Assembly: GCA_964534745.1 (NCBI GenBank)
Contig: CAZHQW010000004.1
Location: 25,376-89,375 of the forward strand
Reading direction: 5' to 3'
Source of the DNA: an uncultured Bacteroidales bacterium
GTDB taxonomy: Bacteria; Bacteroidota; Bacteroidia; Bacteroidales; UBA10428
DNA length: 64,000 nucleotides
Positions within the stretch are counted from its first letter, which is position 1, and every line of letters begins with the position of its first letter. The notes under the pieces were generated by a model. It had not been told where the DNA came from. It saw only the letters and a list, made by a program, of their open reading frames with translations, and ran no database searches. The position numbers and the translations under genes were made by a program. Below, piece after piece: positions 6,955 through 17,520 of the stretch.

Positions 6955-6994
6955 TTAAGTTATTCCTGCCGGTGATAAACAATACTGTAATAAA

Positions 6995-7029
6995 TGATGT
7001 AAATCATACTGGTCTGATGATGTATATCA
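6995..7029. promoter_or_regulatory. two tandem FNR/CRP-type boxes
   Basis: TGAT-gtaa-ATCA (6995-7006) and TGAT-gtat-ATCA (7018-7029), centres 23 bp apart. Confidence 0.65.
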
Positions 7030-7097
7030 CCCTTTAATACTTGACTTCTAGGTGTTTTTTATAGTAGTTTTATTCTTTGAAAACAAACTGCACTACT

Positions 7098-7316
7098 ATG
7101 GAATCAATCGTTCAAACCCCAGCTCAGAAGCTTAAAAAAAACAAATGCTTTTCAGGAGACGAACTGGAAAGTTTGGGAATATTTCCGACAAACCTGCAGT
7201 GCTTCACTTTTTACCATTATGTGCTGTATCAGAAAGAGAACAAAAGAATAATTCTTAAACCTCTGCCCCACAATCTGTTCAAGGTAATCAGAGTATATGA
7301 TTTTATAAGCGCCTGA
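7098..7316 (+). CDS. hypothetical small protein (73 aa incl. Met start at 7098 to stop)
   Basis: Fills an otherwise empty gap, ATG at 7098, downstream of the TF boxes; no family recognised. Confidence 0.55.
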   Translation: MESIVQTPAQKLKKNKCFSGDELESLGIFPTNLQCFTFYHYVLYQKENKRIILKPLPHNLFKVIRVYDFISA

Positions 7317-7359
7317 TACTTTTCACACAAGCTCTCATTTATTTTATTCATTTAAAGCA

Positions 7360-7367
7360 TATCTTTG
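7360..7367 (+). promoter_or_regulatory. Bacteroidota -7 promoter box
   Basis: TATCTTTG ending 6 nt before ATG 7374. Confidence 0.6.
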
Positions 7368-7373
7368 CTTTAT

Positions 7374-7832
7374 ATGAATAAAAAGTCCAACAGGTACCTG
7401 AGAATATACCAGCAAATCAAAAAAATCTTCAAGAACACGGATGATTTAACAGCCCGCATGGCAACAATAAATGCCCTGCTGTATCACAAGATGCCCGGCT
7501 TCTTCTGGGCAGGTTTTTATTTGCTAAAAGAAGGAAGGCTGGTCGCAGGTCCTTACCAGGGTCCCCTGGCATGCACAGAGCTTGAAAAAAATAAGGGTGT
7601 GTGCTGGGCTGCAATTAATTCGGGAAAAACAATCATAGTGCCGGATGTAAACAAATTTGAGGGACATATTGCATGCAGCAGGCTTTCAAATTCCGAAATT
7701 GCTGTCCCTGTAAAAAATATGATTAATGAAGTGAAAGGAGTACTCGATATTGACAGTAAAAAGTTAAACAACTTTGACGGTACTGATTCTATAGAGCTGG
7801 AAAAGATTGTTGGTCTGCTTTATAATGTTTAG
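7374..7832 (+). CDS. msrC: GAF-domain free methionine-R-sulfoxide reductase (fRMsr)
   Basis: WAGFYL, GPYQGPLAC, GVC, GHIAC...SEIAVP, VLDIDS; three family Cys present. Confidence 0.8.
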   Translation: MNKKSNRYLRIYQQIKKIFKNTDDLTARMATINALLYHKMPGFFWAGFYLLKEGRLVAGPYQGPLACTELEKNKGVCWAAINSGKTIIVPDVNKFEGHIACSRLSNSEIAVPVKNMINEVKGVLDIDSKKLNNFDGTDSIELEKIVGLLYNV

Positions 7833-7854
7833 ATAATACAGGCGGATGCTCCAA

Positions 7855-8226
7855 TCACTTTTTGATAAAAGCTTCAAGCATATTCATAATCTTCTGCACT
7901 GAGTATGGCTTGGTCAGCAACTGATCAAAACCCACGTCTTTATAATTATCGAAGAATATCTTTGGATTATGTGCCGTGAGCGCCACAATAGGTATGTTAT
8001 TTTTGGGAGGTACCATCATTCGCCTTATATGCCTCGTTGCTTCAATACCATTCATCACAGGCATTTCGATATCCATCAGTATCAGGTTAATATCATCATT
8101 TGTCATCAGTGACTCGATAGCTATCTTGCCATTCTCAGCTTCGAGATGTTCGTGGCCCAGATCCTCAACTATTTCTGATAACAATAACCTGTTTGTAAAA
8201 ATATCGTCCGTTATTAGGATTTTCAT
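7855..8226 (-). CDS. single-domain response regulator (REC)
   Basis: ITDD, ILMDIEMPVMNG, ALTA, TKP. Confidence 0.92.
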   Translation of the reverse strand: MKILITDDIFTNRLLLSEIVEDLGHEHLEAENGKIAIESLMTNDDINLILMDIEMPVMNGIEATRHIRRMMVPPKNNIPIVALTAHNPKIFFDNYKDVGFDQLLTKPYSVQKIMNMLEAFIKK

Positions 8227-8252
8227 TTTTTGCCAGTATTAATTATTAATAT

Positions 8253-8930
8253 TCAGCCCAACTGACTGAGGGTTTTGATTATATTTATACTGTTTATTGT
8301 AACCCTGGCACCCTCCAGATTTATTATCTTATCATGTTTAAACTCAGCCAGGGTCCTTATAAAGCTCTCCTTGGTCGTACCCGCCAGTTCTGCAAGTTCC
8401 TTCCTGGTAAAAGGGAATTCGAATTCATCGCTTTTATACAGTATTTCCGAGAAATACAATATGACATCTGCAATACGGCCAGGCAGCTGTTTATGGGACT
8501 GACTCATTAGCCTTTCAAAGATGAACAGTCCGTCATTACTGATAAGGCTTATGATCTTTAGTGTAAACTCCCCGTTAGTCTTAAGTACCTTATTAAAAAC
8601 ATCGATATCAATAAAACATATTTCCGACGGATGAATTGCTGAAGCCGAATACTGGTGCATATCTCCACCGTAAATGGACATAAGCCCCAGAAAATCGTCA
8701 GGCATAGCTATTCTCAGAATTATATACTTGTTGTTCCTTCCTTCCTTGAATATTTTAATCAGTCCGGACTTAACAAACATTATGTGGGATGTGCGGGTAT
8801 TCTGCCTGAATATAACTTCCTTTTTATCATATTTCACAACATTGCTATGTTGCAAAATTTCTTCAACCTCTTCCTCACCGAGACAACTGCTAAACGGTAT
8901 TACATAACCTTTATCACTAATTACGACCAT
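8253..8930 (-). CDS. Crp/Fnr family transcriptional regulator
   Basis: cNMP-binding-fold barrel, GRIA, HTH TRKELAELAGTTKESFIRTL. Confidence 0.92.
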   Translation of the reverse strand: MVVISDKGYVIPFSSCLGEEEVEEILQHSNVVKYDKKEVIFRQNTRTSHIMFVKSGLIKIFKEGRNNKYIILRIAMPDDFLGLMSIYGGDMHQYSASAIHPSEICFIDIDVFNKVLKTNGEFTLKIISLISNDGLFIFERLMSQSHKQLPGRIADVILYFSEILYKSDEFEFPFTRKELAELAGTTKESFIRTLAEFKHDKIINLEGARVTINSINIIKTLSQLG

Positions 8931-8997
8931 AATGATATATCTAATAACTTTAAATAAATATAATAAAAATTGTTGACTGATTAAAATATTTAATTAA

Positions 8998-9023
8998 AAA
9001 AAGGTGATATATATCACCTTTTT
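8998..9023. promoter_or_regulatory. perfect 26-bp palindrome containing an FNR-type box
   Basis: aaaaaggTGATatatATCAccttttt between the divergent crp/fnr and REC genes. Confidence 0.75.
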
Positions 9024-9185
9024 CAGTGCATTCCCCTGTATTGAGCCAGAATATGGCTAAGGGGCCAGATTATTTGCCAATATTTACTATGGCTTTGCCA
9101 ATTATATAATATTTTTATATGTATTTGGTTTTATATATTAAATTTTTTATAACTTTAATATAACATAATTGAGGGGCTGAAAGTA

Positions 9186-9569
9186 ATGAAACTTAAGAAA
9201 GATAATTATTTACTTATTGTTGATGATTCCACTACCAATGTAGTTTTACTGGAAGCTGTCTTTGACGAGAAGGGATATAAGATTGAAACCGCCTTTAGCG
9301 CAAAAGAGGCTTTCGGAATAATCGAAAAACAAACTCCCGACCTTATTTTACTGGATTTGTTAATGCCAAAGATAAACGGATTTGATTTTCTCAGGCAGCT
9401 AAGGAGGAAGAAAGCTACAAGGGACACTCCTGTTATTGTAATTTCAGCTGCAACTGACGAAGAGAATGTCCACAGAATAATGGAAATGGGAGCAGTTGAT
9501 TTCATTAAAAAGCCTATTGATCTTGACTATCTGGTAGAGAAGGTTGAATCTGTCTTAATCAAGAAGTGA
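9186..9569 (+). CDS. single-domain response regulator (REC)
   Basis: IVDD, ILLDLLMPKING, ISA, KKP. Confidence 0.92.
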   Translation: MKLKKDNYLLIVDDSTTNVVLLEAVFDEKGYKIETAFSAKEAFGIIEKQTPDLILLDLLMPKINGFDFLRQLRRKKATRDTPVIVISAATDEENVHRIMEMGAVDFIKKPIDLDYLVEKVESVLIKK

Positions 9570-9637
9570 TTGATAGCCCCTATATCAGCTGTTAATATTA
9601 ATATTCCTTTCATCCCCGCATAATTGAATTTAATCAT

Positions 9638-9645
9638 TACCTTTG
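9638..9645 (+). promoter_or_regulatory. Bacteroidota -7 promoter box
   Basis: TACCTTTG upstream of REC gene 9708. Confidence 0.55.
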
Positions 9646-9707
9646 GTTAGTTCCCCTAATAAAAACAACTATACCCAGCGAATTTCGTTATATATTAATA
9701 ACAAATT

Positions 9708-10082
9708 ATGGGCAAAATGAAAAGGGTCTTAATAGTTGATGACAACATGATGATGCGCAGGCTTATCAGAAATGTCTTCAGAAATGAGAGATTTGATATT
9801 ATGGAGGCAAAGAACGGAATGGAGGGCCTTCATCTTGCCAACCAGAACTCCTTTGACGTTGTAATAACCGATATAGTTATGCCTGAAATGGAAGGTATTC
9901 AGTTCATAATTGAACTGAGAAAGATTGCACCCCGAATAAAAATAGTGGCAATATCAGGAGGCAGGCCCTACTATCTTTATGTGGCTAAAAAGCTCGGAAT
10001 AGAAGCCATATTTACGAAACCCCTGAATCATCTTGAATTCGTAAATACAGTGAAAAAGATTGCATACAACCACCAGTCATAA
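9708..10082 (+). CDS. single-domain response regulator (REC)
   Basis: IVDD, VITDIVMPEMEG, ISGG, TKP. Confidence 0.92.
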   Translation: MGKMKRVLIVDDNMMMRRLIRNVFRNERFDIMEAKNGMEGLHLANQNSFDVVITDIVMPEMEGIQFIIELRKIAPRIKIVAISGGRPYYLYVAKKLGIEAIFTKPLNHLEFVNTVKKIAYNHQS

Positions 10083-10239
10083 TTCCACAAAAAATCATAT
10101 TGTTAATACAAGCTTCCAAGGTTTAATAAAAAACCGCAGCTTGTTCAATAAAGTTTTATTAAAAATATTATTTTAAAGAAATATTAATTATTTTTAGATA
10201 TAGTCTTTCTGTATTTAAAAGTTATTTAATATTGTCCTC

Positions 10240-12504
10240 ATGGAAAATAAAAAAGAGTCCATTGTCCAATTAACAATTCTGGCTATTATTATTTCTTTGC
10301 TTTTTCCTGTTGCAGCGATATTTATTGATATAATACTCCACGAGAGTTTTTCCTATACTTTGAGTGACTTTATGCGCCTTTATGCTGAAAATCCCATACA
10401 GTACATTATTTTATCGCTTGTAATTATTATTCCCGTGGTCACCTTCTTTTCCATAAGGTATTTTTCAAAAATCATGGATAAGAAGCAGAAAATTATCGAT
10501 TCCGAAAAACACAAGACAAAAAGAATAGAAGAGTTTACAAAAAAACTGATACAGGAAGATTTTTCGCATGATTTCGAAAGTGATAAGGACGATAGTCTTG
10601 GAAAATCATTACTGAATCTAAGGGACAAGTTAAAGGGAAATAAAGAGACCGACCTAAAGAGAAGAAAGGAAGATGAACAAAGGAACTGGACTGCAGAGGG
10701 ACTGGCAAAGTTTGGAGATATACTCAGAAATGAGATAGACAACGTTGAATCACTGTCATTCAGTATTATCAAGGAGCTTACAAATTATATCGATGCAACG
10801 CAGGGAGGGTTTTATCTGCTTAAAAACAGCGACGGCAAGGAGAAGTTTTTTGACATGACAGCGTTCTTTGCCTATGACCGCAAAAAGTTCGCCAATAAAC
10901 AAATCGCCTGGGGTGACGGATTGATAGGTACAAGTGCGGCAGAGAAAAAGTCAATATATGTAACCGATGTTCCCGAGGACTATGTTAGTGTAACATCCGG
11001 ATTGGGATACACAAATCCCAAGTCAATACTGGTTGTTCCATTGATAAAAGATGACAATATTTTCGGAGTTATTGAATTCGCTTCTTTGAATAAAATTGAA
11101 TCCTACCAGCTTGATTTTGTTGAAAAGGTAGCGGAGAATATCGCCTCGACATTATCAATGGCTGAAATAAGCATAAAAACAACCAGGCTGCTTGAGGAAA
11201 CAAAAGCCCAAGCCCAGGCCCTTACCTCACAGGAAGAAGAGATGAGACAGAACATGGAAGAATTACAGGCCACCCAGGAAGAAGCGACAAGACAGGCAGA
11301 AAAGTTTGTGCTTATGGAAAACACGGTAAATCATACCATGATTCGCGCCGAATATGATAAGGAAGGCTACCTTTTGTATGCAAATACCAAGTTTCTCAAT
11401 AAGCTGGGGTATTCAATGACAGAAGAAGTGGAAGGAAAACATATAACTGAATTCATCGGCAAAAAAGACAGGGAATGGTTTAAGGAAATATGGGATAACC
11501 TTGCCAAGGGAGGCAGGCACTTTGAAGGATATATGAAACATATAACAAAGGCAGGAAAGGACCTCTGGACGATGGCGACATATACCTGCATAAGACTTGA
11601 TAATGGTCAGGTGGACAAGATCCTTTTTCTAGCCCTTGATACTACAGAACATAAAAATCTCAGCCTTAAGATGGAAGGTATAATTGAATCGGTGAACCGC
11701 TCAGGTATTAAGATCGAATTTGATATAAACGGTAATATTGCTGATTACAATGAATCATTTCAACATCTGTTCAAATATACTAACACAGATATTACATCCC
11801 TTTCTGTGTTTGATCTTATAAATCCGCTTGAGCTTGAGAGTTTTAACAAAAAGTGGGAAACTGTAATCAAGGGGGTCGGATTCCAGGGACAGTTCAAGGT
11901 TAAAACCAAAAATGACGAGGAAAGATGGATAAGGGGAGCTTTCAGCGTAATATACGACATGTACGGCGATGTAGATAAGATCTTCTTTATCGGCCAGGAT
12001 ATTACAAATGAAAAGAAGATGGAATTAAACCTTAGAGAACAGACTGAAATACTTAGAAACCAGGAAAAGCTGTTGCGTGAATCCAAAAAGGAACTGACAA
12101 GGAAACTGAGGGAAGAAAAGCTTGAAATGAAAAACCAGTATAGTGCAATCGAGAAAGTTAAAAACAGGAATGAAAAGACCCTTGAGGAATTACCGGATGC
12201 AGTAGTGACTATTGGAAGCGATAATAAAATAGTATTCTTTAATAAAGCTGCAGAGAAATTGTGGGGTTATGGCAGAAGTGAGGTCCTCAACCAGGATGTT
12301 GGCATTTTATTCTCAGAAAAGACAATTGACGTGGATGAATTTGTGGCAGCTATTGTTGGACCCGGTGATAATAAGATTATTAATAAAAGGAAAAAAACAA
12401 AGGTACTAACCAAAGACAGGAAAGAAAGGGAAGTAACGATTCTGCTGGCAAGAGCCAGGCTTGAAGACGAGACAACATACACAGCCTTCATAAATTATAT
12501 TTAA
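10240..12504 (+). CDS. membrane sensor: 2 TM, HAMP-like, GAF, coiled coil, three PAS; no output domain
   Basis: Two hydrophobic helices; NW..EGLAKF..ILR GAF start; EEMRQNMEELQATQEE coil; PAS motifs (LYAN..FL, DITNEK, FFNKAAEKLWGY). Confidence 0.8.
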   Translation: MENKKESIVQLTILAIIISLLFPVAAIFIDIILHESFSYTLSDFMRLYAENPIQYIILSLVIIIPVVTFFSIRYFSKIMDKKQKIIDSEKHKTKRIEEFTKKLIQEDFSHDFESDKDDSLGKSLLNLRDKLKGNKETDLKRRKEDEQRNWTAEGLAKFGDILRNEIDNVESLSFSIIKELTNYIDATQGGFYLLKNSDGKEKFFDMTAFFAYDRKKFANKQIAWGDGLIGTSAAEKKSIYVTDVPEDYVSVTSGLGYTNPKSILVVPLIKDDNIFGVIEFASLNKIESYQLDFVEKVAENIASTLSMAEISIKTTRLLEETKAQAQALTSQEEEMRQNMEELQATQEEATRQAEKFVLMENTVNHTMIRAEYDKEGYLLYANTKFLNKLGYSMTEEVEGKHITEFIGKKDREWFKEIWDNLAKGGRHFEGYMKHITKAGKDLWTMATYTCIRLDNGQVDKILFLALDTTEHKNLSLKMEGIIESVNRSGIKIEFDINGNIADYNESFQHLFKYTNTDITSLSVFDLINPLELESFNKKWETVIKGVGFQGQFKVKTKNDEERWIRGAFSVIYDMYGDVDKIFFIGQDITNEKKMELNLREQTEILRNQEKLLRESKKELTRKLREEKLEMKNQYSAIEKVKNRNEKTLEELPDAVVTIGSDNKIVFFNKAAEKLWGYGRSEVLNQDVGILFSEKTIDVDEFVAAIVGPGDNKIINKRKKTKVLTKDRKEREVTILLARARLEDETTYTAFINYI

Positions 12505-12550
12505 AAAGGATTTTCTGCAGAATGCATAGGCCCGGAAAAAAAAGCGGATA

Positions 12551-14107
12551 ATGCAAAAGAAAGATGATTATTGTTACCAGCTATTAAAAGTCCTTGAACT
12601 TGAGAATATTGGATACTGGACAAAAGAAAAGGACAGTGATATAATGCATTTTTCTGAAATGGCGGCGCAAATAATAGGTCTTATGACCGGTGATTTATCC
12701 ATGAAGTTGAATGATTTCCTTGGCAATGTCTATTCAGAAGACAGGCACACCCTTGAGCATTACATTAATGAGCTGCCCGGGGGAAAAGATTTCACCGAGT
12801 GCATCTTTAAGATGATGAGGTTTAATTCGGAAACCAAAGAAGTTATAAATTTATCAACGCGCATAACGAATATCTATGGTTATGACAGCAAGAACCTCCT
12901 TATATTAGGTACTATATCAGACATTACGAAACAGGAAAAACTCAAAAGGGAAGCCCTGAGGATAAAAGAGAAAGCTGAAGAGCTTTACATGCAAAAGAAC
13001 ATATTCCTTGCTAATATCTCACATGAGATAAGGACCCCTATGAACTCGATTGTAGGTTTCTCGGAACTGCTGAATATAGGTAATCTTGATGCCCGCACCC
13101 GCAATGAATACTTTAGAATAATTAAACATCAGGGCCTTCAATTGCAAAAGCTGGTAGATGATATTTCCGAACTGGCAAAATATGAAACAGGCGAGCTGAA
13201 AATCAATAAATCACCATGCAACTTCAATTTATTAATTAACGAGTTATTAATCAGTTTTAACCATCATAAATCCAAACTTAACAAGGATAATGTCACAATA
13301 AAGATTAGTCTGCCGCACAGCGAGGAAATAATAGGGTACACAGATTCGGGAAGGATAACCCAGATATTGTCAAATCTGATAAATACCTCCTTGTATTTCA
13401 CTGACAGGGGAATAATAGAAATAGGTTATTACAAGGCTGATGATAAAAAGTTAATATTCTATGTTAAGGACACGGGAGCCGGTTTTACGGCAGATGAACA
13501 GAAGTATATATTTGACAGACTCTCACAGGTTGAGGAAACGATTATAAAAAAATTTGAGGGACTGGGATTAAGCCTTACCATTTCCAAAGGTCTCGTTAAA
13601 CTGATGGGTGGCAAAATATGGCTGGAATCAGAGCCAGGTTCTGGTACAACATACTACTTTCAGATACCTTATGAGGAACTCCCTCACGATGATACGCCGG
13701 AAGAAATTGAAGAAGCTCCTGTCCTGTCGCAATACAGCTGGAAAGACAGAATAATTATTATAGTTGAGGATGATGAGATAAATTACAGGTTTCTTGAAGC
13801 TGTGCTCCATAACACTGATGCGCGGATCATACATGCCGATAACGGATACCAGGCCATTGACCTTTGCAAATCGATAAATAAGATCGATTTGATACTTATG
13901 GATCTTAAACTGCCTGATATTAGCGGCTTTGATGCAACACTCGAGATCAGGAAGATAAATAAGGACATACCTGTCATAGCACAGACAGCCCTTGTGCTTA
14001 AGGAGGAAAAAGAGAAATGCCTCAAGGCAGGTTGCAATGACATCATTACCAAGCCCATTGAAATAGGTAAGCTTCTCAGACTTATAAACAAATATCTTAG
14101 TGAATAG
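12551..14107 (+). CDS. cytoplasmic hybrid histidine kinase-receiver with degenerate ATP-binding motifs
   Basis: H-box FLANISHEIRTPMN, G1 DTGAG, REC ILMDLKLP...KP; N-box reads NLINTSLYFT and G2 reads GLGLS. Confidence 0.85.
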   Translation: MQKKDDYCYQLLKVLELENIGYWTKEKDSDIMHFSEMAAQIIGLMTGDLSMKLNDFLGNVYSEDRHTLEHYINELPGGKDFTECIFKMMRFNSETKEVINLSTRITNIYGYDSKNLLILGTISDITKQEKLKREALRIKEKAEELYMQKNIFLANISHEIRTPMNSIVGFSELLNIGNLDARTRNEYFRIIKHQGLQLQKLVDDISELAKYETGELKINKSPCNFNLLINELLISFNHHKSKLNKDNVTIKISLPHSEEIIGYTDSGRITQILSNLINTSLYFTDRGIIEIGYYKADDKKLIFYVKDTGAGFTADEQKYIFDRLSQVEETIIKKFEGLGLSLTISKGLVKLMGGKIWLESEPGSGTTYYFQIPYEELPHDDTPEEIEEAPVLSQYSWKDRIIIIVEDDEINYRFLEAVLHNTDARIIHADNGYQAIDLCKSINKIDLILMDLKLPDISGFDATLEIRKINKDIPVIAQTALVLKEEKEKCLKAGCNDIITKPIEIGKLLRLINKYLSE

Positions 14108-14492
14108 CCCTTTGCCGCACCTTTGCTCTTCTTATGTAGTCCCTGATATTTAAATATATTGAAATTGCAAATGCTGCGAGGAATGAAACAAGAGTGACAG
14201 TATTTATAAAACGGGGGTCAAAGTCCAGTCCGCTTAGCCTGTCTGCCAGATATTTTACGTATGAATCAGGCAGTCCGGTATGACCCATCTTTACAAGTAT
14301 CTTGAAATGCCAGTCAGTGAGAGGGCAGTAACCCATTCCGCAGAAAATGCCCAGAATAAACCAGGATGCACAGGTCAGGGAAAGGGTTATTAGATTAAGC
14401 TTCCTGGTTTTTCTGAAAATCCAGCCGAACAAATTAAAGAATATTAAAAGTGTATGAAATGTTATAAAGAAAAAATCAACTAATTTTAGCAT
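14097..14492 (-). CDS. DUF2784 family membrane protein
   Basis: FH...F.LFGW, GYCPLTDW motif, three TM segments. Confidence 0.75.
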   Translation of the reverse strand: MLKLVDFFFITFHTLLIFFNLFGWIFRKTRKLNLITLSLTCASWFILGIFCGMGYCPLTDWHFKILVKMGHTGLPDSYVKYLADRLSGLDFDPRFINTVTLVSFLAAFAISIYLNIRDYIRRAKVRQRAIH

Positions 14493-14498
14493 GGTAAT

Positions 14499-14780
14499 AT
14501 GCAGGTTTTAATGATACATAAAGATATTCAAATATTCGGAATGGTTCAGGGTGTCGGATTCAGATATTCGGCCAGGCATGCCGCAATAAATTACGGCATT
14601 AAAGGCTATGTGAGGAATATGCCTGACGGCAGTGTTTATATTGAAGCTGAGGGACAGGAACAGAATATGGCCGAATTTATTAAATGGTGCAGGAAAGGAC
14701 CCGGCTCAGCATATATCGAAAACATAAATGTCGAAGAGGGCGCAATGAAGAATTTTGAACTCTTTGATATCAGGTTTTAA
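14499..14780 (+). CDS. acyP: acylphosphatase
   Basis: G.VQGVGFR, GYVRN.PDGSV.I.AEG, GP; start may be ATG 14511. Confidence 0.92.
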   Translation: MQVLMIHKDIQIFGMVQGVGFRYSARHAAINYGIKGYVRNMPDGSVYIEAEGQEQNMAEFIKWCRKGPGSAYIENINVEEGAMKNFELFDIRF

Positions 14781-16476
14781 CATTCTTCATAAATAATGAC
14801 CTCACTCCGCTCACAAGCATCCACAGCGTAAGCAGAAGCACAAGAACGGCAATAACAAGAAGTATCGCAGATCCTTTTTTTTCTATGACACCGGGTTTCA
14901 GTAAACCAAGCACATTATTTATCATGGCCCACACGGTAGTTATAAGCACAAACAACATGGGAATAAAGGCAACAAGGTAATTTTTCCCTTTATGATAAAG
15001 GTAGATGCTTATTATTCCGAGTCCGAGTGCGGCAAGAAGCTGGTTCAGTGCGCCAAAGATAAGCCAAAGCCTGAGTGCCTCTTTGGCTGTAATCTGAAAG
15101 TATATTATAATGGCTGCAAGCAAAACAACAATAAATGTCGCAAAGTACCTGCTTCTTATGGGCCTGATCACTGTTCCCGCCTTAGTCTTGAAAATTTCCT
15201 GGAGGGAGAGCCTTTGTATCCTTGTAGCCGAGTCAAGGGTAGTATTGGCAAAGCTCACAACAAATACAACTATTAGTACGGTGCCAAACTCTTTATGAAT
15301 ACCTATACTTGATAACAGATTAGAAGCACCATCAACGAAAGCTGCAATTTTGGGACTTATGTCTATTCCACTGGCAATTCTGCTCCAGGTCGAATAATGG
15401 TCGTAGAATGCCCCTTTCCCCAATCCCCCGACAACAGCAATGATAACAAGGACGGCAAGAAATCCTTCAAGTATCATCCCCCCGTAACCGATCAATACGG
15501 AGTCTTTTTCTTTATCTACCTGCTTTACAGTAGTACCGGAGCTGGCCAGGGAATGAAAACCGGAAATGGCGCCACAGGCAATGGTAATGAATAACATGGG
15601 CATCAGTCCGGGTAAATTCGGGTCAGTATCATGTACAACACGATTAATTGCAGGTGCATCAATAGCAGGATGGGCAATTATTGTTCCTGCCACCAGCAGT
15701 ATCATAGCTATTATCAGCTGGTGGGAATTTATATAATCTCTTGGCTGCAAAAGTTTATTTACGGGCACCGTTGAAGCAAAGAACACATATATAAGTATAA
15801 TCAAGCCCCATAACAGCTTCCTGTTCACCGGGTTACCAATAAATGCAAATTCGATCTCAATATAAGGACCTGCAATAATGGATAAATACATTAGTGCCAC
15901 TGCTATTATTGAATACAATAACTCATTCCCTCCCCTTCTTATCTGCCATCCCAGCCATACGGCCACAGGTATCTGAAACCAGACGGGAAATACCGATGCA
16001 GGGTATTCAACAAAAAGTGTAGCCACAATAATAGCAAAAAGTGCCAGGACCATCCACAATAAAAACTGGATGAGAAACTGGAATGCATAGCGGGTTGAAT
16101 TATTGACAATATTTCCTGTAAGGTCGCCTATCGACTTACCCTGGTTTCTTGCAGATATTACAAGAGTGGCAAAATCATGTACTCCTCCCATAAATATTGA
16201 GCCGAAGAAAACCCAGAGAAAAGCCGGCAACCAGCCCCAGATCACTCCTATTGCCGGACCGACAATAGGACCTATTCCGGCAATTGTTGTAAAATGATGC
16301 CCGAAGACTATACTTCTTTTAGTCGGCATAAAATCAACACCATCCCTGAACTGGTGTGCAGGCATTTTGTTTTTATCTGAAACACCCAGTATTTTTCCGG
16401 CTATGTATCTTCCATATGTTCTGTAAGCAACTATATAGCCTGCAAAGGCCAGAACCATAAGCACAACAGTGTTCAT
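14770..16476 (-). CDS. cstA: carbon starvation protein A (peptide/pyruvate transporter family)
   Basis: FGHHFTTIAGIGPIVGP, GGVHDF, TIACGAISGFH, TTLDSATR. Confidence 0.92.
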   Translation of the reverse strand: MNTVVLMVLAFAGYIVAYRTYGRYIAGKILGVSDKNKMPAHQFRDGVDFMPTKRSIVFGHHFTTIAGIGPIVGPAIGVIWGWLPAFLWVFFGSIFMGGVHDFATLVISARNQGKSIGDLTGNIVNNSTRYAFQFLIQFLLWMVLALFAIIVATLFVEYPASVFPVWFQIPVAVWLGWQIRRGGNELLYSIIAVALMYLSIIAGPYIEIEFAFIGNPVNRKLLWGLIILIYVFFASTVPVNKLLQPRDYINSHQLIIAMILLVAGTIIAHPAIDAPAINRVVHDTDPNLPGLMPMLFITIACGAISGFHSLASSGTTVKQVDKEKDSVLIGYGGMILEGFLAVLVIIAVVGGLGKGAFYDHYSTWSRIASGIDISPKIAAFVDGASNLLSSIGIHKEFGTVLIVVFVVSFANTTLDSATRIQRLSLQEIFKTKAGTVIRPIRSRYFATFIVVLLAAIIIYFQITAKEALRLWLIFGALNQLLAALGLGIISIYLYHKGKNYLVAFIPMLFVLITTVWAMINNVLGLLKPGVIEKKGSAILLVIAVLVLLLTLWMLVSGVRSLFMKNVKT

Positions 16477-16704: not shown

Positions 16705-17520
16705 ATGAAAGAAACAAAAAGAACCATACTCATCCCCTATGATTTCACCATGCTTTCAGATTGCGCGCTTGAACATGGTGTACAAATTGGCAGACTGCTG
16801 GACAGCGACATAACTCTGCTCAATATAATTGACAATCTGAAAGATGAAGTACATGTAAAGGATAGGCTCACTGAGAAGGCCAAAGAAGCACAGAAAGAGT
16901 TTCATATACTGCCCAAGGTAATGGTCAGGCCGGGAAAGGTGTCGCAGGCAATAAAAGACGTGGCAACAAACATTAACGCGGACCTTGTGATAATGAAAAC
17001 AAGCGGGCCAAAAGGCATTCAGAGGTTTACCGGAAGCAGGGCAATAAAAGTGATGTATGGTTCAAAGATTCCCTTTATAGTTATACAGGCACCGCCAAAA
17101 CGGGAGATTATCAAACAGGTTATTGTCCCTATTGATTTCAGGTTCGAGAACAAGGAAAAACTAAAATGGATTAATTTCCTGACAAAGATCTATACTCCCA
17201 GTGTTTATCTTTTCCGCCCTAATGTTTCTGATTACAGGATAAGGAACAACCTGAAATTTGCCACCAATTTTCTTGAAGGAAGAAATATAGGATTTGAGCT
17301 TGTTCACGCCCGGGGCAAGAAATCCTTTGTGGAAGAAGCTATTGACTTTTCAAACTTCATAGATGCGGATCTGTTAATTATCATGCTAAGCCGCTCTATT
17401 ACGCTGGGTAAGATCCTTTTTGGCCTGAATGACCAGAAATATATAACCAATAAATACAAAGTACCTGTAATGTGCCTCAATCCGCGGACAGATTTAAGGA
17501 AGTTTGCAGGATTCAGATAA
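16705..17520 (+). CDS. universal stress protein (tandem USP domains)
   Basis: ILIPYDFT, ADLVIM, GSRA, IVPIDF, second ADLLII. Confidence 0.85.
   Translation: MKETKRTILIPYDFTMLSDCALEHGVQIGRLLDSDITLLNIIDNLKDEVHVKDRLTEKAKEAQKEFHILPKVMVRPGKVSQAIKDVATNINADLVIMKTSGPKGIQRFTGSRAIKVMYGSKIPFIVIQAPPKREIIKQVIVPIDFRFENKEKLKWINFLTKIYTPSVYLFRPNVSDYRIRNNLKFATNFLEGRNIGFELVHARGKKSFVEEAIDFSNFIDADLLIIMLSRSITLGKILFGLNDQKYITNKYKVPVMCLNPRTDLRKFAGFR

Follow-up and report, generated by a model that had tools for sequence, protein, structure and literature searches.

The 64-kb window analysed here, from contig CAZHQW010000004.1 of an uncultured Bacteroidales bacterium of salt-marsh and marine sediment, encodes a module of eight genes between 7098 bp and 14107 bp. 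These encode a protein of 72 amino acids (aa), which we have designated sORF72, a predicted free methionine-(R)-sulfoxide reductase (fRMsr), a Crp/Fnr-family regulator (crp), three single-domain receivers (REC1, REC2 and REC3), a membrane protein with one GAF and three PAS domains (GAFPAS) and a hybrid histidine-kinase-like protein (HHK). Comparison with related loci indicated that the module is probably the surviving, still selected periphery of a Bacteroidales Che-type locus whose core was deleted. On this reading no new kind of system is involved: a Che-type locus has been stripped of its core, and the leftovers are still used. A sequence-only reading of the region had proposed an autonomous, undescribed hub composed of a Crp/Fnr regulator, three lone receivers, an output-less GAF/PAS sensor and a degenerate hybrid kinase. 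Pfam and NCBIfam agreed with this gene content, and all eight open reading frames (ORFs) were intact. The four receiver domains matched Response_reg with E-values of 1e-21 to 1e-31, and each retained the equivalents of the CheY acidic pair D12/D13 (E-D in HHK), D57, T/S87 and K109, as had been read. The reading was also right that conventional partners are missing, as Pfam and NCBIfam found no Hpt (PF01627), CheW, GGDEF/cyclase or DNA-binding response-regulator output in the eight genes.

The che cluster of related loci

When one genome was scanned for each species, about 30 loci with a full-length GAFPAS orthologue were found, seven further loci were added by exact-protein look-ups, and the proteins of the window were compared with the loci (given L numbers) by tblastn. 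The order sORF72-fRMsr-REC1-crp-REC2-REC3, followed by GAFPAS-HHK-(DUF2784)-acylphosphatase (AcP)-(CstA-universal stress protein (USP))-Bat operon, was present in L001, L003-L007, L009, L081-L083 and L085-L087. Among these, L087 is from a closed chromosome of 3.5 Mb (CP070654.1; GCA_020354785.1) with the same gene order. As more than 12 other species-level genomes and contigs share these genes and their order, the clustering is not due to chance, and the earlier expectation that the genes would be co-conserved held.

Alignment of these loci with the window showed that the two halves of the module are not adjacent in all of them. In L006 and L007, about 6.7 kb between REC3 and GAFPAS was full of che-type genes, which encoded a protein of about 570 aa that we have designated X600, CheY, CheW, CheR, a kinase-like protein of about 298 aa, CheD and CheB. 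The same cluster was found in L002, L010, L014, L018, L028 and L032 with the addition, between CheY and CheW, of a complete CheA consisting of Hpt, dimerisation, HATPase and CheW domains (in L002, CheA was at 3780-5840 bp and CheW at 5837-6352 bp). Variants of the cluster were present in L015, L025 and L027, the last of which encoded a canonical methyl-accepting chemotaxis protein (MCP; PF00015) in place of X600 and was the only locus with such an MCP. In the 11 loci with an upstream che cluster, CheB was directly before GAFPAS, an arrangement by which the che cluster consistently ends with GAFPAS. The genes of the upstream half were also found beside or within it: REC1 was divergent beside X600 in L014 and L032, REC1-crp was beside CheA in L027, and REC3-like genes were within the cluster in L015, L018 and L028.

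Searching the entire window by tblastn with CheA (including its Hpt domain), CheW, CheR, CheD and CheB of the relatives revealed no che gene. As the halves of the module flank a Che cluster in the relatives, the absence of CheA and CheW from the window represents a secondary deletion, and the proposal of an autonomous, undescribed hub was not upheld, since a canonical-looking Che cluster lies between its two parts there. Partial remnants of the cluster were encoded by three loci: X600 and CheR by L086, X600 only by L083 and CheR only by L001. Because these loci retained different remnants, the deletion appears to have proceeded piecemeal and in situ. The ancestral order would have been sORF72-fRMsr, divergent REC1 and crp, REC2-REC3, then X600-CheY-CheA-CheW-CheR-kinase-like protein-CheD-CheB, and finally GAFPAS-HHK; in the lineage of the window the che core would have been deleted in situ, leaving 157 bp and both flanks (Table 1).

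Table 1. Positions of the module genes, predicted binding sites and neighbouring genes in the window; X600 is given by its positions in the related loci.
Feature	Position (bp)	Strand	Evidence or remark
Crp-type box ATGATGTAAATCAT	6994-7007		90 bp upstream of sORF72
Crp-type box ATGATGTATATCAC	7017-7030		67 bp upstream of sORF72
sORF72	7098-7316	+	72-aa ORF, first gene of the module
fRMsr (single GAF domain)	7365-7832	+	Pfam GAF_2 and PDB matches
REC1, CheY-like single-domain receiver	7855-8226	-	Pfam Response_reg
Crp/Fnr-family regulator, 225 aa	8253-8930	-	cNMP_binding and HTH_Crp_2
Crp-type box GTGATATATATCAC, perfect palindrome	9004-9017		crp/REC2 divergent promoter region
REC2, single-domain receiver	9186-9569	+	Pfam Response_reg; 67-77% identity in relatives
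REC3, single-domain receiver	9708-10082	+	Pfam Response_reg
Deletion junction REC3/GAFPAS	10083-10239		157 bp; 6-7 kb of che genes here in relatives
GAFPAS, 754 aa, TM-GAF-3xPAS (TM, transmembrane)	10240-12504	+	Pfam GAF_2 and three PAS
HHK, 518-aa hybrid histidine-kinase-like protein	12551-14107	+	HisKA, HATPase_c and Response_reg
DUF2784	14097-14492	-	Conserved neighbour; no evidence of membership
AcP	14499-14780	+	Conserved neighbour; no evidence of membership
CstA	14770-16476	-	Conserved neighbour; no evidence of membership
Tandem USP	16705-17520	+	Conserved neighbour; no evidence of membership
Bat (Bacteroides aerotolerance)-type operon	17513 to about 24800	-	TPR, BatD, TPR, VWA/BatA x2, DUF58
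X600	L002 1256-3067; L007 3664-5379; L014 1248-3050; L083 8257-9942; L086 6796-8478

X600, the first gene of the che cluster, encodes a protein of about 560-600 aa to which no Pfam or PDB sequence matched. It contains a conserved motif, LQ[YF]QDxxxQKIEH, whose D-x3-Q spacing recalls the active site of CheZ, and in full clusters it has an acidic C-terminus that ends [LIV]E[LF]F. X600 may be a stand-in for the missing MCP, or a phosphatase. Its assignment as a CheZ-like phosphatase was not adopted, the resemblance being limited to the LQYQDxxxQ motif and the acidic C-terminus. The kinase-like protein of the cluster (295-303 aa; 7169-8065 bp in L007, 7346-8233 bp in L002 and present in eight other loci) has canonical N, G1 and G2 boxes, and its phospho-His is replaced by Asn in 10 of 10 orthologues (SN[IV][ST]NE). 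This His-less kinase is the mirror image of the HHK of the window, and it is conceivable that it represents a split or trans-acting kinase.

At the position of the che cluster, L009 contained an OEP/HlyD/ABC/FtsX efflux system and a LytS/LytTR pair (2596-9311 bp). A relation of this insert to the module was rejected, as the pump and the LytS/LytTR pair are unrelated to it. As another insert is found there in L009, the REC3/GAFPAS junction is a recurrent site of gene turnover.

The C-terminal tail of GAFPAS

Analysis of GAFPAS revealed two transmembrane segments (about aa 8-33 and 53-75), a coil, a GAF domain (aa 170-305), an invariant coil with the motif EEEMRQNxEEL (aa 306-355) and three PAS domains (aa 372-470, 493-592 and 645-739). 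No output domain and no MCP signalling domain were found by Pfam or NCBIfam. The family has a near-constant length, mostly 754-763 aa, in more than 100 clusters at >=49% identity, all of them from Bacteroidales/Bacteroidota metagenome-assembled genomes. GAFPAS and HHK were considered as a single kinase broken by a stop codon; this was rejected as the family keeps its length across these clusters and the two genes are separate in every locus.

The C-termini of the family members were then compared. The pattern [LIVA][ED][LFIV]F ended 68 of the best 120 homologue clusters, nearly all of which read ...TAFIQxIEVELF. With the exception of L027, the che-adjacent orthologues retained this tail (or SVDLF or SVDFF). 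The GAFPAS of the window ended in ...AFINYI and had lost the IEVELF tail, the ends found in the window clade being AFINYI, DETQKT, AFITYI and FIQNIG. Loci that encoded HHK and no che genes had either lost the tail or retained decayed remnants of it (IEVE, IEVENR, IKVKLF and IEDKMS). The loci with partial che remnants differed from each other in this respect: L086, with X600 and CheR, kept VEVELF, and L083, with X600 and no CheR, ended in IEDKMS. The tail was present in 11 of the 13 loci with CheR compared to 3 of the 20 without it (Fisher p=1.6e-4, uncorrected for phylogeny). A neighbour-joining tree placed at least five independent losses of the tail, including one in the lineage of the window.

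The CheR of the cluster aligned with Salmonella typhimurium CheR (1BC5, the CheR-NWETF complex) without gaps across the beta-subdomain, and its alignment with Pseudomonas aeruginosa CheR1 showed a deletion of 4 residues in this subdomain. A longer beta-subdomain reportedly marks pentapeptide-dependent CheRs, an observation attributed to García-Fontana et al. in 2014. The canonical tether of CheR and CheB is a C-terminal xWxxF with acidic residues at the other positions, and EVELF resembles it in its terminal Phe and its charge (PMC7390727). From the correlation between the tail and CheR we infer that the adaptation machinery, most likely through CheR, docks on this peptide. If so, GAFPAS was once a component of a Che system and not an orphan sensor. 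The earlier description of GAFPAS as an output-less sensor was therefore correct as to its domains but missed that it is the terminal gene of the che cluster and that its tail tracks CheR.

It is unlikely that the module is an autonomous hub unrelated to chemotaxis, which would receive its phosphate from outside kinases, such as the hybrid two-component system (HTCS) protein encoded at 53.6 kb, or from acetyl-phosphate, and act through protein contacts. This account agrees with the intact receivers in a module that has no competent-looking kinase, with an acylphosphatase conserved beside the kinase, with an HTCS that lacks a helix-turn-helix (HTH) and with the persistence of the module, under selection, without che genes. 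However, its halves flank the che cluster, REC1/crp and GAFPAS were che-linked even in the most distant loci, and the GAFPAS tail co-varied with CheR. Moreover, nothing links the HTCS (53616-57449 bp, + strand; 1277 aa with six Reg_prop, Y_Y_Y, HisKA, HATPase_c and REC domains and no AraC-type HTH) to the module. With regard to how the module works at present, the autonomous hub overlaps with the best explanation; it is incomplete on what the module is.

The che core might instead have moved, with CheA, CheW, CheR, CheB and CheD encoded elsewhere in the genome and the module still part of a chemosensory pathway. L013, L017 and L026 retained the IEVELF tail and had no che gene within 10 kb, which shows that the che cluster can be unlinked from GAFPAS, and the view of the genome was limited to 64 kb. 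We nevertheless consider relocation quite unlikely: the tail was lost in the window clade and in every other lineage whose GAFPAS-HHK has no che genes beside it, the remnants in L086, L083 and L001 represent piecemeal decay in situ and not the excision of a whole cluster, and the 64 kb contained no che gene.

Kinase motifs, promoter boxes and neighbouring genes

HHK consists of a PAS-like N-terminus, a HisKA domain (aa 149-214) in which the His is kept, a HATPase_c domain (aa 265-375) and a receiver domain (aa 402-512). Two of its motifs, the H box (SHEIRTP) and the G1 box (DTGAG), have the canonical form. In the N box, NLINTSLYFT (nt 13367-13402), Thr stands in place of Asn and Tyr in place of Lys compared to the NLxxN[AS]xK[FY]T of orthologues and of the other kinase of the window; in the G2 box (EGLGLSL) the third Gly is replaced by Ser, and the F box has Leu for its second Phe. 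The altered ATP motifs that had been noticed from the sequence were thus real, and the N-box substitution was fixed in the clade formed by the window, L081 and L082. Among 18 orthologues, the N-box Asn was replaced by Thr, His or Tyr in 10 (the window, L081, L082, L003-L007, L084 and L085) and the N box was canonical in L001, L002, L008, L009, L011, L019, L024 and L083. The G1 box was also degenerate in several of the 10 with a replaced Asn, clearly so in L003, L004, L006 and L007, and the phospho-His was Arg in L002 and Gln in L009. In total, 12 of the 18 had lost the His or the Asn, including the Che-bearing L002, L006 and L007, and these changes should disable autophosphorylation. Since two Che-bearing loci, L006 and L007, share the degeneracy and it has become fixed in the clade, it represents an old and stable state of the kinase.

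The N-box Asn is a Mg2+ ligand and the Lys contacts the ATP phosphates (EnvZ N347, PhoQ N389/K392 and HK853). EnvZ N347 mutants are kinase-negative and phosphatase-positive, and ChpT and Spo0B are His phosphotransferases that have a kinase fold with a dead catalytic and ATP-binding domain. In the window, HHK retains the H-E-x-x-T motif and the receiver Asp. Because its His is kept and the N-box Asn and Lys are replaced, HHK is predicted to be a phosphatase or phosphotransfer element and not a source of phosphate, and we infer this role in place of that of an autokinase. GAFPAS and HHK form an invariant tight pair in about 20 loci of the HHK-bearing clade, HHK always being directly downstream of GAFPAS, with a gap of 15-50 bp in the closest relatives.

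Selection on the module was estimated against two relatives, with GAFPAS identities of 91% and 86% and synonymous divergence (dS) of 0.2-0.7 and 0.5-1.6. The ratio of non-synonymous to synonymous divergence (dN/dS) was 0.02-0.20 for every module gene, including 0.06-0.11 for GAFPAS, 0.08-0.14 for HHK, 0.02-0.07 for REC1 and 0.04-0.05 for sORF72. As all the remaining genes are under purifying selection, the module is not a dying relic. It is highly improbable that it is decaying into pseudogenes after the loss of the che core, as might be supposed from the degenerate ATP motifs, the lost tail, the absence of fRMsr from L082, its splitting in L085 and the absence of REC3 from L085. Against such decay are the eight intact ORFs, these dN/dS values at dS of up to 1.6, the retained receiver residues and the presence of the same kinase degeneracy in L006 and L007, in which the Che cluster persists, as well as its fixation within the clade.

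The regulator matched PF00027 (2e-17) and PF13545 (2e-12), and every NCBIfam equivalog score was far under its cut-off. It was 69-76% identical at loci where GAFPAS identity was 49-61%. With only two Cys (C16 and C105) in 225 aa it lacks the [4Fe-4S] Cys cluster of Fnr and is therefore not Fnr-type, and inspection of the sequence also showed no equivalent of the Arg with which E. coli CRP binds the cAMP phosphate. REC1 lies 26 bp downstream of crp, with which it is probably co-transcribed; no description of a CheY-like receiver paired with a Crp/Fnr gene was found in the literature.

Crp/Fnr sites are TGA-N6-TCA palindromes, that of CRP being GTGA-N6-TCAC and that of FNR TTGAT-N4-ATCAA. By comparison with these, RTGAT-N4-ATCAY is a Crp/Fnr-type box. 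The box GTGATATATATCAC was conserved across an alignment of nine orthologous crp/REC2 intergenic regions and had a sole exact match in the window, and a box conforming to the strict motif was at the same position of this divergent region in 10 of 14 loci. Scanning the 14 loci (296 kb) for RTGAT-N4-ATCAY revealed 35 sites, compared to 2.3 expected (the maximum in 200 shuffles was 7), and 33 of the 35 were at stereotyped promoter positions. The 12 loci that reached upstream of sORF72 all had one or two boxes there, at 64-67 bp and/or 87-93 bp. Boxes were also present 68-159 bp upstream of X600 in L007, L083 and L002, and upstream of REC3 in L009. The suggestion that the module is transcriptionally gated was borne out in this sense, and the shared box, by its positions, joins sORF72-fRMsr and the receivers, and in the ancestor also the che cluster, in one putative regulon. 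A search for RNA runs that cover the region found none, and scans for sigma-70 promoters and terminators gave hits at chance level only, the models being unsuited to Bacteroidota.

Homologues of sORF72 formed 105 clusters, mostly of exactly 72 aa, in which C17 and C35 were nearly invariant and an RxILKPLP motif was invariant. None of these clusters contained a Pfam domain, and comparison of the AlphaFold2 model of sORF72 (pLDDT 79) with the PDB revealed no fold match with an E-value below 0.3. On this conservation sORF72 is a genuine conserved gene. The GAF protein encoded at 7365-7832 bp matched YebR of E. coli (1VHM) and fRMsr of Neisseria meningitidis (3MMH) with E-values of 1e-27 to 1e-28, the matches to 1VHM, 3MMH, 3KSF and 1F5M together ranging from 1e-24 to 1e-28, and its three Cys motifs (xAC, GVC and HIAC) aligned with those of the matched structures. 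These matches identify it as a free methionine-(R)-sulfoxide reductase. Translation probably starts from the ATG at 7374, giving 152 aa; the fRMsr of the relative L081 was called at this length. L082 did not encode fRMsr (4548-5101 bp) and in L085 it was represented by two short fragments (7435-7899 bp), with sORF72 intact in both. As sORF72 and the remainder of the module were intact where fRMsr was missing or split, fRMsr is dispensable to the module.

Downstream of HHK, the Bat-type operon was assigned by synteny with the Pfam annotation of L081 and was syntenic in relatives. Glutathione peroxidase was encoded beside HHK in L009 (13917-14462 bp), L083 (13607-14152 bp) and L086 (13969-14514 bp). 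A redox theme for the module, as suggested earlier, is plausible from the match of fRMsr to YebR and fRMsr structures, the Bat-type operon and the glutathione peroxidase of these three relatives. Just upstream of the module, L085 encoded an acetate kinase, a phosphotransacetylase and a second acetate kinase (774-3995 bp); acetate kinase and phosphotransacetylase make acetyl-phosphate. In the window, the HTCS is followed by a Por_Secre_tail protein, sorted by the type IX secretion system (57560-59071 bp).

Proposed working and comparison with known systems

Several observations weigh against the module being the retained, cooperating periphery of a Che-type locus. AcP, CstA, USP and the Bat operon are also syntenic among the closer relatives, and as the whole neighbourhood is syntenic, adjacency is weak evidence that the eight genes cooperate. 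L001 encoded CheR and a GAFPAS with a truncated tail, L027 encoded CheR and an MCP and had no tail, and EVELF is without the Trp of xWxxF. Paralogues with other output regions share the N-terminal two-thirds of GAFPAS, including the coil. The locus scan relied on two search patterns, of which EEEMRQNxEEL was one, and it also recovered these paralogues. This motif was considered as a methylation site and rejected, as the paralogues share it and its sequence departs from the EExxA[ST] consensus; it is probably a generic signalling helix. The G1 box of HHK is intact in the window, so that residual ATP binding is possible, and the boxes are putative sites of the adjacent Crp protein. Finally, the loss of the che core, as opposed to its relocation, was argued indirectly, from the decay of the tail and the remnants in situ, with a che search that covered the 64-kb window.

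The synteny of the neighbourhood could also mean that there is no functional unit, and that unrelated two-component genes are adjacent only through it. In L081, L087 and L003-L005, GH43, CotH, AcP, CstA, USP and the Bat operon were as syntenic as the module; in L008, L011 and L019, the 10 kb preceding GAFPAS-HHK did not contain the block from sORF72 to REC3; and in L009 the efflux pump and LytS/LytTR pair separated the two blocks. We judge this very unlikely, as the sORF72-fRMsr, crp/REC2 and che promoters have a common Crp-type box, REC1 (with crp in L027) adjoins the che cluster in L014, L027 and L032, from which the downstream synteny is gone, and GAFPAS-HHK is invariant as a pair.

If the module is what remains of a Che-type locus, it might work as follows. 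The Crp/Fnr protein would autoregulate crp-REC1 and gate sORF72-fRMsr and REC2-REC3, possibly together with GAFPAS-HHK. GAFPAS would be a membrane-anchored cytoplasmic sensor whose GAF and PAS domains perceive a signal from within the cell or from the membrane. It would formerly have served the Che system, probably as a substrate or partner tethered to CheR; at present its sole route of action would be its fixed partner HHK, reached probably through PAS-PAS contact. HHK would bind Mg-ATP poorly and act as a phosphatase or as a His phosphotransferase similar to ChpT or Spo0B, shuttling or draining phosphoryl groups among its own receiver and REC1-REC3. The phosphodonor would be a kinase encoded elsewhere or acetyl-phosphate. 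The receivers would act by protein contacts, and REC1, the oldest partner of crp, would be the likeliest route to transcription.

A more specific form of this proposal is tentative and more doubtful than the origin of the module. In it, GAFPAS was a non-MCP partner or substrate of Che adaptation, recruited to CheR through the Trp-less EVELF, and was re-used after CheA, CheW, CheR and CheB were lost in several Bacteroidales lineages. It would now drive the kinase-dead HHK as a relay or drain among CheY-like receivers, with REC1 feeding into Crp/Fnr control of an oxidative-repair regulon (sORF72-fRMsr). If true, a Che pathway has been converted to a transcriptional phosphorelay. The series of intermediates (full cluster, X600 with CheR, X600, CheR, nothing) shows a chemosensory machine being dismantled while its periphery was kept and re-used. 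The comparison also draws attention to three uncharacterised, widely conserved Bacteroidales families with clear partners, namely the IEVELF-tailed GAF-3xPAS sensor, X600 and the 72-aa protein. In HHK it provides a candidate for a protein with a kinase fold that serves lone receivers as a phosphotransferase or phosphatase, and in crp-REC1 a candidate for the pairing of a Crp/Fnr regulator with a CheY-like receiver. The annotations 'PAS domain S-box protein' for GAFPAS and 'hybrid sensor histidine kinase' for HHK are misleading labels.

No description of this type of cluster was found in the literature, and its parts were compared with known systems. The regulator has the domain architecture of other Crp/Fnr proteins and, in its own promoter region, a GTGAT-N4-ATCAC box that merges the CRP and FNR cores; it differs from them in lacking both the Fnr Cys cluster and, on inspection, the Arg of E. 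coli CRP that binds the cAMP phosphate. The three output-less receivers with intact phospho-acceptor pockets resemble the networks of single-domain response regulators (DivK, CpdR, LovR and SdrG/PhyR-type), from which the module differs in the pairing of REC1 with a Crp/Fnr gene. In its sequence pattern HHK is similar to ChpT of Caulobacter, Spo0B of Bacillus and the phosphatase-locked HisKA kinases (EnvZ N347), as it keeps the His of the dimerisation and phosphotransfer domain and E-x-x-T and has lost the N-box Asn and Lys; it also belongs to a module of several receivers that has no Hpt protein. HHK differs in having its own receiver, a PAS-like input and, in the window, an intact G1 box.

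The relatives' GAFPAS resembles the chemoreceptors that tether adaptation enzymes by an NWETF-type pentapeptide (PMC7390727) in its acidic EVELF with a terminal Phe, which co-varies with a CheR whose long beta-subdomain is like that of S. typhimurium CheR. It differs from them in having Val and not Trp at position 2 and in that the carrier is not an MCP; the protein of the window has no tail. The locus of the relatives as a whole is closest to the Che pathways that do not serve motility, classed as 'alternative cellular functions', such as Wsp of Pseudomonas and Che3 and Dif of Myxococcus. The window differs from these in having no core genes, and most of the related clusters differ in having X600 and GAFPAS instead of a Pfam-detectable MCP. 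Like those pathways, the relatives' locus encodes CheA, CheW, CheR, CheB, CheD and CheY together with extra CheY-like receivers and an adjacent transcription factor, a composition consistent with a Che system whose output is not flagellar.

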